Below, in pieces: positions 39,172-54,744 of a DNA stretch of 64,000 nt. The notes beneath the pieces were generated by a model. That model saw only the letters and a list, made by a program, of their open reading frames with translations, ran no database searches and was not told the origin of the DNA. A program made the position numbers and the translations under genes. The first letter of the stretch is position 1. Each line of letters starts with the position of its first letter. The stretch comes from Candidatus Spongiisociaceae bacterium (GTDB lineage Bacteria > Actinomycetota > Acidimicrobiia > Spongiisociales > Spongiisociaceae). The stretch is from positions 512,001 to 576,000 of the forward strand of contig OZ241841.1 of NCBI GenBank assembly GCA_965202665.1, written 5' to 3'.

Positions 39172-40395
39172 TTACAGGTTGGAGGCGAAATCCAGGGCTT
39201 CTGTAAAACCGGCGTCCTGTAGGAGGAGACGGCGCAACTTCATCAGGGGGCCCACTCGGTCGATGGCGAACACGCCGCCCAGCCGGTCGCCGCGGCGGTA
39301 AAGGGCCAGCAACCCCGGCTCGTCCGGAGGATCGTCGACGAAGACCACCTCCTCCTCGGAGGCCAACCCCGCCAACTGCAAGCGGTGGCCGTACTGATCC
39401 GACCAAAAGTAGGGGATGCCGTCGTAGGCGACCGGCTCCTCCCCGCTCATGACATTGCAAATGTTGCGGGCGGCGGCCGCCGCTTGCTCCACCGTGTTCG
39501 TCCAGTGCTCCACCCGTATCCGCCCCCCGAACCGCCGGCTGTCCCAAGCCGCCAAATCCCCCACCGCGTAAACGTCGGGGAGGGAAGTGCGCAGAAACCG
39601 GTCGCAGACCACCGCCCCCCGCTCCGTTTCCATCCCCGAACCCTCCAACCATTCCGTGTTGGGGATCACCCCGATTCCGACCACCATCGCCCCGCACCGC
39701 TCTTCGCTTCCATCCGACAGTTCCACCGCCAGCTCCGATGACTCCTCCCGCGCGCCCGACACCCCCGTCCCGCACCGCAGCTCCACCCCGTACCGTCCGT
39801 GCAAGGCGGCGCATCTCTCCCCGACCTCCCGGCCCACGGCCGCCGCCAACGGCTGCTCGGCGGCCTCGGCGATGATCACCTCCAAACCCCGGCTGCGGGC
39901 GGAGGCCGCCACTTCGCTCCCGATGAAACCGGCCCCCGCCACCACCAACCGGCGGGCCGTTTCCAACGAGGAGCGGATAGCGGCCGCATCGTCCAAGGTT
40001 CTCATCACGTGCATCCCCGGAAGTTCGCCGACGCCGGGGAGCCAGCGGGCCCGGGAGCCGGTGGCGACCACCGCCGCCTCGTAGGCCAGTTCCTCCCCGT
40101 TCGCCAGACGGACGGTGCGGGACGCGGCGTCCCAACCGACCGCCGCCGTCCCCAGCCGCAAAACTATGCCCTGTTCCTCAAAAAACTCCGGCGGGCGCAA
40201 CAGCGCCTCGGAGGGTTGCTTCTCCCCGGTTAGAACCTCTTTGGAAAGCGGGGGGCGGTCGTACGGCGGGTGCGGTTCGTCCCCCACCAGGGTGATTGGG
40301 CCGGGGAAGCCGAAAGTGCGCAAAGCCGCCGCCGCCCGCAGTCCGCCCAGCGAAGCCCCCACCACCACCGCCGCCGGGGAAGAAGAATCGGTCAC
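39172..40395 (-). CDS. FAD/NAD(P)H ferredoxin reductase (glutathione-reductase type)
   Basis: PYDRPPLSK, ATG, GAGFIGSE, YAVGD, RVEHW, PYFWSDQY. Confidence 0.93.
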   Translation of the reverse strand: MTDSSSPAAVVVGASLGGLRAAAALRTFGFPGPITLVGDEPHPPYDRPPLSKEVLTGEKQPSEALLRPPEFFEEQGIVLRLGTAAVGWDAASRTVRLANGEELAYEAAVVATGSRARWLPGVGELPGMHVMRTLDDAAAIRSSLETARRLVVAGAGFIGSEVAASARSRGLEVIIAEAAEQPLAAAVGREVGERCAALHGRYGVELRCGTGVSGAREESSELAVELSDGSEERCGAMVVGIGVIPNTEWLEGSGMETERGAVVCDRFLRTSLPDVYAVGDLAAWDSRRFGGRIRVEHWTNTVEQAAAAARNICNVMSGEEPVAYDGIPYFWSDQYGHRLQLAGLASEEEVVFVDDPPDEPGLLALYRRGDRLGGVFAIDRVGPLMKLRRLLLQDAGFTEALDFASNL

Positions 40396-41462
40396 CCGGC
40401 GGGGGCCAGCTCAAAGACGCCGTCGGCGATTTCCATCAGCCACCGCCGATAGAGGACGGTTCCCAAATCGGCCGCTTTGACATGCATCTCGGCGCTCAAC
40501 TCCACCGGCAACTCCTCCGGGCGCTGGGATTCCACAACCGGTTTGTCCTGGGCGAGGATGATCCGTTGCATGCCGTCGAACTCCTCGTCCATGTCCAAGG
40601 CGTAGTTGCGGGCCATGAAGGTGAAACAGCGGGTCCGTTTCCGTCCCACCGGGGCCACCGCCACGAACAGTATGTAATGCTCGTCGGGGCCGGCCGAGCT
40701 GTCCAGCCACATGGCGTTGGGCATGAACACCCGGTATCTCTTCCAAGCCTCATAGGTTTCCCCCACGCCGGACACGGCCGAATTCTTGGGGTTGTCGGTG
40801 TATTCCAAAAAGGGCCCGGCCGTGATGCGAATCTCCCCTCCGTAACGTTCCGCCTCGTAGTCGGCGATCACCGGGTTGTCGCGATCCCCCAATATTCCAT
40901 GATGGACATGGGCGAAATGGGAGAAGTCAAAATAGTTCTCCAGCCGCCGACCCACCGAGCAGTCCCACTCGTAGGGATCCCAGTGCATAACACGATAGGA
41001 GGGGTCGTCTAGTTCCGGCAGGACGGCGGGCGGGAAAACGGGGGTTTCGCCGCCCAGGCAGGTCCACACCAGGCCCCCCGATTCCACAGCCGGGTAGACG
41101 GGAAGTTGGGCCTTCAGTTTGCCGTTCAACTCGGGCCGGGCGGGGATGTCCGCCACCGCGCCGTCCTTGTCGTAGGCCCACCCGTGGTAGGCGCAACGCA
41201 AAAAACAGCCGTCGATGCGGCCCAAGGCCAACGAAGAGCCGCGATGCCGGCAGATGTCGTCGAATACGTAAGGTTGGCCCTCCAAACGGGCCACCGCCAA
41301 ACGGGTGTCGAACAGGGTGACCTGATGGGGTTCGTCCGTCAGATCCTCGGAGAAGGCCACCGGATGCCAGAAATGCCGCAACTGTTCGTAGAGCTTCGTC
41401 TCGCCGGCCACATCCAGCTGGGTGTTTCCCTGCACCTCCAACAAGTCGCCTGCCTGCTGCAT
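40392..41462 (-). CDS. Rieske non-heme iron oxygenase alpha subunit (NdmA/VanA-like)
   Basis: LRHFWHPV, CRHRG...CAYHGW, RRLENYFDFSHFAHVH, QDKPVVESQ; AAGGAGG RBS. Confidence 0.92.
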   Translation of the reverse strand: MQQAGDLLEVQGNTQLDVAGETKLYEQLRHFWHPVAFSEDLTDEPHQVTLFDTRLAVARLEGQPYVFDDICRHRGSSLALGRIDGCFLRCAYHGWAYDKDGAVADIPARPELNGKLKAQLPVYPAVESGGLVWTCLGGETPVFPPAVLPELDDPSYRVMHWDPYEWDCSVGRRLENYFDFSHFAHVHHGILGDRDNPVIADYEAERYGGEIRITAGPFLEYTDNPKNSAVSGVGETYEAWKRYRVFMPNAMWLDSSAGPDEHYILFVAVAPVGRKRTRCFTFMARNYALDMDEEFDGMQRIILAQDKPVVESQRPEELPVELSAEMHVKAADLGTVLYRRWLMEIADGVFELAPAG

Positions 41463-41472
41463 AACCACCTCC

Positions 41473-53893: not shown

Positions 53894-53940
53894 CCTCAGG
53901 TCAATGGAACATGGAACGCATGGGACATAAGGAGGCTTTG

Positions 53941-54744
53941 ATGTTGACACCCGGGGTTCGCCATGGCTACGCGGCGGGGGCGGAGGGCAACCGACTGCAC
54001 TTTCTGGACTTCGGGGGGAAGGGTCCGTCGCTGGTGTGCCTGCACGGGGTGACCGGCAACGCTTGGAACTGGCATGCGGTTGCGACTGGGATAAGGGGCA
54101 GGCGGCGGGTGTCGGCGGTGGACTTGCGCGGCTACGGGGAAAGCCAATGGTCGGCTTCCCATGCCTACCGGACCGTCGACCACGTTGCGGACTTGGCCGC
54201 CCTGGTGGACGGCTGGGAGGAGGAGCGGGTGGATGTGATGGGTTCCTCCTGGGGGGCTTTGATCGCCCTTCAATACGCGGCGGAAAACCCGGGCCGGGTG
54301 GGGCAGCTGGTAGTAGTGGACGTGGAGCCGTCCTTCGCGCAAGGCGAAACCGACCTGTTTCCCCGCCCGACCAGCCACGCCGACATGGAAGAAGTGAAAA
54401 AAGGGGTGGAGGCCGCCCATCCCAACGCCGACCGGGAGATGGTGGAACTTACCGCCGCCCTCTGTTACGGGCCGGTGGAAGGGGGACGGCTGGCCCCCAA
54501 ACACGACCCATTTTTCTTTGAGCGATGGCCGTTCCGCTCCGATGACCATTGGGATCGTTTGGAGCGGTTGGAGGCGCCCGTCCTGTACGTGCACGCCGCC
54601 GGCAGTTTCGTGAAAGGGGAGGTGATGGCGCAGATGGCGGAGCGCACCCCGGACGGCCGTTTGGCGGAAGTGGCCGACAGCTCCCATGTGGTCCCGGTGG
54701 ACAACCCGGCCGGTCTGGTAGTGGCGACTCTGCCTTTCCTGTGA
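53941..54744 (+). CDS. Alpha/beta hydrolase
   Basis: LHG, DLRGYGES, GSSWG nucleophile elbow, C-terminal His (SSHVV); AAGGAGG RBS. Confidence 0.9.
   Translation: MLTPGVRHGYAAGAEGNRLHFLDFGGKGPSLVCLHGVTGNAWNWHAVATGIRGRRRVSAVDLRGYGESQWSASHAYRTVDHVADLAALVDGWEEERVDVMGSSWGALIALQYAAENPGRVGQLVVVDVEPSFAQGETDLFPRPTSHADMEEVKKGVEAAHPNADREMVELTAALCYGPVEGGRLAPKHDPFFFERWPFRSDDHWDRLERLEAPVLYVHAAGSFVKGEVMAQMAERTPDGRLAEVADSSHVVPVDNPAGLVVATLPFL

Follow-up and report, generated by a model that had tools for sequence, protein, structure and literature searches.

Caffeine demethylation by Rieske oxygenases has been described for NdmA and NdmD of the NdmABCDE system, which is typified by Pseudomonas putida CBB5 (PMC12445004; papers given by PMC number are cited from excerpts), and the related oxygenase HpxD of Klebsiella oxidises hypoxanthine and xanthine (PMC7373994). 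Here we analyse a cluster of 14 genes at positions 39172 to 54744 of a 64,000-nucleotide stretch of DNA (the window; positions 512,001 to 576,000 of contig OZ241841.1, assembly GCA_965202665.1) from a Candidatus Spongiisociaceae bacterium. The cluster encodes two Rieske oxygenases, RO-A and RO-B, together with an amidohydrolase (AH13), a molybdenum (Mo) hydroxylase and an importer. An original prediction had read it as a catabolic pathway for methylated purines or related N-heterocycles. On the basis of gene content, phylogeny and comparison with relatives, we propose, at a probability of roughly 0.5, that methylpurines would be stripped for purine salvage and one-carbon (C1) metabolism rather than fully degraded.

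Like NdmA and NdmB, both oxygenases are alpha-only Rieske proteins of the same fold (31-34% identity, template modelling (TM) score ~0.72) and paralogues with different pockets. In contrast to NdmABCDE, however, RO-A and RO-B fall outside the NdmA/B clade, a ferredoxin and a glutathione reductase (GR)-type reductase replace NdmD, and the cluster lacks NdmC, NdmE, FrmA and FghA but adds a deaminase, a short-chain dehydrogenase/reductase (SDR), an alpha/beta hydrolase, a Mo-hydroxylase trio and a BMP-type ATP-binding cassette (ABC) importer; no urate pathway was found downstream in the source genome. HpxDE, the hypoxanthine/xanthine hydroxylase, belongs to the same oxygenase group (~30% identity) and has a purine substrate, yet HpxD forms its own clade (100/100), the system is two-component, and its genes lie near hpxO, uraD and uraH, three genes that the searches of the source genome did not recover. 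The saxitoxin-tailoring Rieske enzymes SxtT and GxtA, whose substrate is purine-like and cationic, match in structure (TM 0.73-0.75) but score lower (121-130 bits) and are biosynthetic C-H hydroxylases of cyanobacteria.

Two Rieske oxygenases related to NdmA/B and HpxD

RO-A and RO-B each consist of Rieske and VanA_C domains and carry the Rieske CxH...CxxH motif and a 2-His-1-Asp iron site, and no beta subunit gene is present. Their predicted kinship to the caffeine N-demethylases is borne out: the closest solved structures of both are NdmA and NdmB (139-167 bits), followed by SxtT/GxtA and, far lower, DdmC (44-61 bits), and the top PDB matches act on purine or purine-like rings. VanA-like proteins score 85-103 bits. 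An O-demethylase identity of the VanA/DdmC kind was rejected on the difference between the DdmC and NdmA/B scores; the tree by itself did not reject an O-demethylase grouping (p 0.30, on a long branch, in approximately unbiased (AU) tests). RO-A is closest to an oxygenase of an Acinetobacter purine cluster (177 bits, 36.7% identity), followed by an NdmA-like protein (164 bits, 33.6%) and HpxD (157 bits, 30.5%), which surfaced as a relative in a plasmid search. The NdmA signatures ascribed to both proteins proved to be a composite list, of which each holds several members and neither the full set: RO-A has LRHFWHPV and YRRWL, but ENYFDFSHF and ESQRP, and RO-B has RRLENFVDFSHF, DKPVVESQWP and YRSWL, but MRHFWHPV.

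In a 41-sequence tree, the phylogeny named beforehand as a check, RO-A with RO-C, RO-B, RO-D, NdmA/B, HpxD and an NdmC-containing group were each strongly supported (RO-C and RO-D occur in relatives), with no resolved order among them. The NdmA/B/C entries were proteins of a plasmid cluster with the gene order of the published ndm cluster (PMC10380055); SxtT, GxtA, DdmC and CdhA were left out. NdmA/B form a clade (100/99) that excludes RO-A and RO-B, and RO-B joins oxygenases of Comamonas and Paraburkholderia (100/99). Whereas a quick tree had weakly grouped the oxygenases with NdmA/B (SH-aLRT 84), careful trees gave a polytomy. To judge from their sequences, RO-A and RO-B are not NdmA/B orthologues but form subfamilies of their own in a group to which HpxD also belongs, and they are predicted to work in the manner of the NdmA/HpxD/SxtT group while being distinct from NdmA/B. 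The claim that both are N-demethylases is thus not established, as they lie outside the NdmA/B clade, HpxD scores similarly and the AU tests reject neither grouping; oxidative demethylation nevertheless appears somewhat more probable than another activity.

The pocket positions 282 and 286 of NdmA, those changed in the 'NdmA QL mutant' structures, are Q/L in RO-A (as in NdmB), E/L in RO-B, A/T in RO-C and N/I in RO-D. Kim et al. reportedly found in 2019 that specificity for N1 or N3 depends on these two positions.

Electrons are likely delivered to both oxygenases by the ferredoxin and the GR-type reductase, in support of the three-component chain suggested earlier. In one relative (G008), RO-B, the ferredoxin and the reductase are present and RO-A is missing, which implies that the chain likely serves both enzymes and that RO-B likely works alone. 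As predicted, an NdmD-type reductase is missing: an NdmD query against the whole genome matched Rieske domains only, plus one 25% reductase-like hit elsewhere, and no orthologue was found. Two other Acidimicrobiia loci (L083, L087) encode a pair of Rieske proteins, one of which groups with NdmC, together with a glutathione S-transferase and a Rieske-ferredoxin fusion, resembling NdmC/D/E; these Rieske genes stand beside GcvT and a BMP importer.

Importer and predicted deaminase suggest a purine-like substrate

In sequence and fold, the BMP protein best matches AtzT, solved with guanine bound, and 3s99, in which adenine was modelled; nucleoside binders rank behind both. AtzT co-purified with guanine, which is sandwiched by Tyr45 and Trp194 (PMC6834077). 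This aromatic pair is kept in BMP as W79/W231, whereas, by hand mapping, the guanine hydrogen-bonding residues are changed (E165 to N202, N218 to E255 and N220 to F257); the equivalent of AtzT Ser97 is kept in a multiple alignment only. With the aromatic pair retained and three of the polar contacts altered, BMP likely binds a modified base and not guanine itself.

AH13 displays Q85 after strand 1 along with E248, H282 and D333, the subtype III pattern of the GuaD cluster. Such a glutamine, combined with the Asp-His-Glu machinery, has been linked to substrates of the guanine type whose leaving group is ammonia or an alkylamine, one of them being N2,N2-dimethylguanine (PMC12828455). AH13 lies below every NCBIfam cut-off and is predicted to be a deaminase that acts on a guanine-like ring. 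AtzB, 8-oxoguanine deaminase and AtzA share the glutamine and the catalytic machinery, but AH13 represents a distinct subfamily, expanded up to fivefold in relatives. In two of its paralogue groups, AH22 and AH16 (L033:16748-18160, L029:10986-12389), Ala replaces the catalytic Glu of HxxE, implying different chemistry.

Because the binding protein is AtzT-like, the hydrolase is of the guanine-deaminase type and betaproteobacterial operons described below share accessory genes with the caffeine cluster, the substrate is quite probably purine-like, in line with the purine side of the original prediction.

Purine synthesis and salvage in the host family

The source genome, a single contig of 2.77 Mb that is 94% complete, yielded no purF, purD or purC, with controls positive in 13-14 of 14 cases. 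Uricase, 5-hydroxyisourate (HIU) hydrolase, ygeW and diaminopropionate ammonia-lyase were likewise not found in it, nor were UraD, HpxO and allantoicase, each sought with single queries only. Despite the missing early genes purH is kept, and two Hpt, Apt, PurA, PurB and an inosine monophosphate dehydrogenase (IMPDH)-family gene beside a guaA-like gene are present; blanks from motif searches (guaB, purB and others) were discarded, as profile searches later found such genes. Across the family, neither purC nor purD was found in 14 of 25 genomes (4/8 of genus g2, 5/8 of g7 and all of g1 and g4), all 14 of which have AH13 and 12 of which have RO-B. This patchy pattern within two genera suggests repeated loss. 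Uricase and HIU hydrolase were found in none of the 25, and the term 'catabolic' is thereby weakened.

A sponge setting is supported, the stretch being present in sequencing runs labelled sponge or marine metagenome. Several methylguanines are known from sponges. One sponge methylpurine is 1-methylisoguanosine (PMC13143886). The excerpts of PMC11706023 do not contain the words purine, xanthine, caffeine or demethyl, and a literature search, which did not cover most subscription journals, returned nothing on this cluster, on purine auxotrophy in Ca. Spongiisociaceae or on a Rieske-SDR-hydrolase methylpurine route.

In the proposed scheme, the BMP-ABC system would import a base-sized purine, and electrons would pass, as the gene order suggests, from NADH through the GR-type reductase and the [3Fe-4S] ferredoxin to both oxygenases. 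By analogy with NdmA/B chemistry, RO-A would hydroxylate a ring N-methyl group, which would leave as formaldehyde and be taken up by two mycothiol-dependent formaldehyde dehydrogenases. AH13, given its active-site glutamine, would remove ammonia or (di)methylamine from a guanine-like ring. Hpt and Apt would then salvage the base, so that the ring would enter purine salvage and the methyl carbon the C1 pool. The Mo enzyme would alter the oxidation state of a ring carbon; the direction of this change is the least certain step. Both formaldehyde dehydrogenases (above cut-off), Fhs, FolD and a formate dehydrogenase-like protein are encoded elsewhere in the source genome. The earlier statement that neither a regulator nor a formaldehyde-detoxification gene is present is true of the window, but an XRE-cupin regulator occurs in 7 of 14 regions from relatives and the dehydrogenases lie outside the window.

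The first alternative is full methylpurine catabolism, as in the original prediction; here demethylation would be followed by Mo-dependent 8-hydroxylation as in caffeine dehydrogenase, and by ring opening through the hydrolases (plus a flavoprotein in relatives). We regard it as unlikely. In its favour, the Mo trio belongs to the core of the cluster, relatives also have the flavoprotein (10/14 regions), further amidohydrolases, a tautomerase and, close by, an isocitrate lyase, HIU hydrolase is present in both betaproteobacterial carriers, and the source genome holds PucD-like and selenium-type xanthine dehydrogenases as well as SsnA-like and YgfK-like genes elsewhere. Yet the missing uricase, HIU hydrolase, ygeW and ammonia-lyase speak against it, no orthologue of the flavoprotein occurs in the cluster of the source genome or of its relative G001, and destroying purines would be costly for a likely auxotroph.

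The prediction of an enzyme of the xanthine dehydrogenase (XDH) family holds for the trio and its AYRGFG loop, but the large subunit is QorL-like rather than XdhB-like: it scores 497 bits against QorL, 395-437 against CoxL, 384 against KdhL and 147 against XdhB. To judge from sequence it is neither XdhB nor CoxL. A canonical xanthine dehydrogenase was rejected on these scores, the XDH NCBIfam models being below their cut-offs, and an aerobic CO dehydrogenase on the active-site loop, which is AYRGFG (at L361) and not the AYRCSFR of CoxL. CdhABC (caffeine dehydrogenase) and QorLMS are, like the trio, three-subunit Mo/FAD/FeS hydroxylases of N-heterocycles, QorL being the best solved match; unlike for CdhABC, no TmuM-, TmuH- or TmuD-type partners were seen for the trio. 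The true aerobic CO dehydrogenase large subunit of the genome, above cut-off and with YRCSFR, is encoded at G000:C1:2305356-2307731, and several further XDH-family large subunits occur elsewhere. At G000:C1:896500-902000 (L158), selenium-type xanthine dehydrogenase, SsnA- and YgfK-like genes are found without ygeW or diaminopropionate ammonia-lyase.

RO-B, SDR and hydrolase form a conserved module

The SDR and the alpha/beta hydrolase had been regarded as extras. Instead, they form a conserved unit with RO-B, which directly adjoins the SDR and has the hydrolase only a few genes away, both in the window and in 11 of 11 relatives in which the locus was seen. Among Betaproteobacteria, a Comamonas metagenome-assembled genome and the cultured Paraburkholderia silviterrae have operons of a PDR-type reductase, SDR, Rieske oxygenase, hydrolase, NCS2 permease and amidohydrolase, with proteins 35-55% identical to their window counterparts. 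Transporter and electron donor were thus swapped between lineages while the enzymes of the RO-B module stayed together. As in NdmABCDE, these betaproteobacterial relatives possess an orf5-like gene and the same permease type: three NCS2 permeases of such operons are 48-53% identical to the permease of the ndm-type plasmid cluster used for the tree and 27-30% to that of the Hpx cluster, and a Comamonas TIM-barrel gene is 48% identical to orf5 of that plasmid cluster. In G323, a genome of a different family, the cluster has C1 neighbours on its flanks, namely Fhs, FolD, methylenetetrahydrofolate reductase (MTHFR) and an MtmB-like corrinoid methyltransferase system, which suit release of formate and methylamine. 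In TsaMBCD, a Rieske oxygenase and an NADH-regenerating SDR also act on a methyl group, although that substrate is a C-methyl compound and an aldehyde dehydrogenase stands in place of the hydrolase.

Caffeine demethylation requires neither SDR nor hydrolase (PMC10380055), and for this reason RO-B likely makes a stable intermediate. Speculatively, RO-B would yield a longer-lived N-hydroxymethyl product, which the SDR would oxidise to the N-formyl derivative and the hydrolase would cleave to formate, with NADH returned; this route from N-methyl to formate is doubtful, a deformylase (51 bits) being one among many weak PDB hits of the hydrolase, whereas the gene module itself is observed.

The dispensability of SDR and hydrolase in caffeine demethylation also favours a second alternative, in which both oxygenases, in the manner of HpxD or SxtT, would hydroxylate C-H bonds of rings that are purine-like, pterins or cyclic guanidines; RO-B would hydroxylate a ring carbon, the SDR would form a lactam and the hydrolase would open it. 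HpxD-type proteins reach 131-177 bits against 149-164 for NdmA/B-like ones, Foldseek ranks NdmA, GxtA and SxtT about equal for the RO-A model (TM 0.72-0.75; predicted local distance difference test (pLDDT) 86.5), and the RO-B pocket contains the acidic E282 and the basic R237 (NdmA numbering). The RRxENxxDFSHF and YRxWL motifs agree, however, with NdmA/B rather than HpxD, both the accessory genes in common with ndm and the C1 genes around the G323 cluster argue for release of a methyl group, and an HpxD grouping costs 18 log-likelihood units as opposed to 1 for an NdmA/B grouping, a difference that is not significant. We consider C-H hydroxylation quite unlikely. A non-purine N-heterocycle as substrate (pyridine, quinoline, vitamin B6, triazine or a sponge alkaloid) is improbable: QorL and KdhL are the closest solved relatives of the Mo subunit, among NCBIfam models, those named 'putative B6 ABC' rank first for the transporter and pyridoxal 4-dehydrogenase is a hit of the SDR (each scoring far under its cut-off), and the amidohydrolase and BMP best hits come from atrazine systems, but AtzT co-purified with guanine (PMC6834077), NCS2 nucleobase permeases stand in for the BMP importer in Proteobacteria and no ring-cleavage dioxygenase was seen in the cluster.

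Several observations weigh against demethylation for salvage as we propose it. Mo hydroxylases normally oxidise, which would lead away from salvage. AU tests, run on 24 of the 41 tree rows, reject no grouping (NdmA/B, p 0.435; HpxD, p 0.115), and HpxD carries N282/F286 of NdmA, so that demethylases and hydroxylases cannot be told apart at these pocket positions. The altered guanine contacts of BMP belong here as well. The cluster also occurs in 7 of 11 purC-positive family genomes, and the relatives behind these family counts are not independent samples; G323 and three of four Acidimicrobiales carriers likewise keep purC, and AH13 lies away from the cluster in some genomes of g2 and g7. An Xpt-like gene, present in 13 of 15 relatives, is missing in the source genome and G001, leaving a xanthine product without an obvious salvage route here; a second IMPDH-family gene (possibly GMP reductase), kept by most relatives, is missing in the same two genomes. 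The SsnA-like, YgfK-like, PucD-like and selenium-type genes mentioned above count on this side too.

Distribution and layout of the cluster

The cluster is conserved within Ca. Spongiisociaceae: among 24 further genomes of the family, RO-A was found in 17 (83-90% identity), RO-B in 18 (81-88%) and AH13 in 20 (68-79%), and none of the three in 16 sampled genomes from other families of the order, including the unpublished G028 and G039. RO-A matches at 86-89% occur in records titled Ca. Spongiisociaceae and Acidimicrobiia. The alpha/beta hydrolase gave five matches in a 301-genome sample of the class, one of them in G323, which has a related cluster. Four Acidimicrobiales loci, two titled Ca. 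Aldehydirespirator, share the gene order of ABC genes, Mo subunits, ferredoxin and RO-A, with ~55-76% identity; the wider contig scan covered 4 of 64 parts, and the broader distribution is accordingly that of a sample.

Compared with 14 regions from 12 relatives, whose genes were called in this analysis, the cluster in the window is a reduced one. The relatives have, in addition, RO-C, RO-D, more amidohydrolases, BMP proteins and Mo trios, as well as a tautomerase, proteins of the GcvT family and the flavoprotein, which is phytoene-desaturase-like and matches only generic family names in PDB and Atlas. With up to four oxygenase subfamilies of differing pocket residues and up to five deaminase paralogues, they would fit a set of methylation patterns.

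All 14 genes of the predicted inventory were confirmed in place by Pfam and NCBIfam searches (Table 1). Twelve form a tight minus-strand run (intergenic gaps -8 to 173 nt), from which AH13 and the alpha/beta hydrolase diverge. The ABC ATPase reading frame is split in two, but four of four sequencing runs, one of which may itself be the source of the window assembly, show one extra T after 48417; the frameshift is therefore an assembly error and the gene intact, and a broken transporter was rejected. An Rfam scan of the window and of four loci gave a tRNA as its sole match and no riboswitch, and promoter and terminator scans gave results at chance level.

Table 1. Genes of the cluster, with positions in the window
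Feature	Position	Strand	Evidence
GR-type ferredoxin reductase (FdR)	39172..40395	-	Pyr_redox_2 + Reductase_C; top NCBIfam HcaD/AndAa, below cut-off
Rieske oxygenase RO-A, alpha subunit only	40392..41468	-	Rieske + VanA_C; PDB best NdmA 167 bits; model matches NdmA, GxtA, SxtT
Single-cluster ferredoxin, 66 aa, likely [3Fe-4S]	41473..41673	-	Fer4_13/Fer4_15; C-x2-S-x2-C...CP; cluster type suggested by motif
Mo-hydroxylase small [2Fe-2S] subunit	41752..42288	-	Fer2 + Fer2_2
Mo-hydroxylase FAD subunit	42288..43172	-	FAD_binding_5 + CO_deh_flav_C
Mo-hydroxylase large subunit, QorL-like	43169..45562	-	QorL 497 bits; AYRGFG at 361
ABC permease	45595..46488	-	NCBIfam ABC permease models, below cut-off
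ABC permease	46481..47629	-	BPD_transp_2
Double-domain ABC ATPase	47626..49193	-	Two frames match one 511-aa orthologue
BMP-family lipoprotein, AtzT-like base-binding type	49206..50318	-	Bmp; sequence and fold best AtzT, then 3s99
Rieske oxygenase RO-B, alpha subunit only	50492..51544	-	PDB NdmB 143, NdmA 142, 6wnc 130 bits
Classical SDR, adjoins RO-B in every locus seen	51588..52337	-	adh_short; TGxxxGIG, NNA, YxxxK; synteny
Subtype III amidohydrolase, GuaD-cluster type (AH13)	52460..53893	+	PDB best AtzA 193 bits, then AtzB/8-oxoguanine deaminase; H80, H82, Q85, H245, E248, H282, D333
Alpha/beta hydrolase, GSSWG nucleophile elbow	53911..54744	+	Abhydrolase_1; weak PDB hits only, incl. a deformylase at 51 bits

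Next to the cluster, positions 36823-39153 (+) encode a tandem array of three paralogous, membrane-anchored proteins that match nothing in Pfam, one of which matches TIMP-like actinobacterial clusters in the Atlas (TIMP family on 19% of one cluster); similar genes lie within the cluster in some relatives. On the other side, positions 54754-61770 (-), a stretch of lower GC, encode a surface protein of 2338 aa that carries leucine-rich repeats and SLH domains; another SLH protein comes after it.

Implications

At its broadest, the proposal is that a dominant family of sponge symbionts repeatedly gave up purine synthesis and lives on methylated purines of its host by means of new regiospecific Rieske demethylases, one of which, with SDR and deformylase, would provide a so far undescribed redox-neutral, formaldehyde-free route of N-demethylation that also occurs in soil bacteria; taken as a whole, this is rather unlikely. 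NdmA and NdmB are in use for making methylxanthines, and if the proposal holds, substrates would be named for four uncharacterised Rieske subfamilies next to them and for an AtzA-related deaminase family. As cultured Paraburkholderia has the RO-B operon, the chemistry is testable without growing the symbiont. If the proposal is true, it would describe a concrete metabolic exchange in the sponge symbiosis, in which methylpurines, whether sponge metabolites or bases from RNA turnover, would supply nucleotides and C1 units to symbionts that are likely purine auxotrophs.

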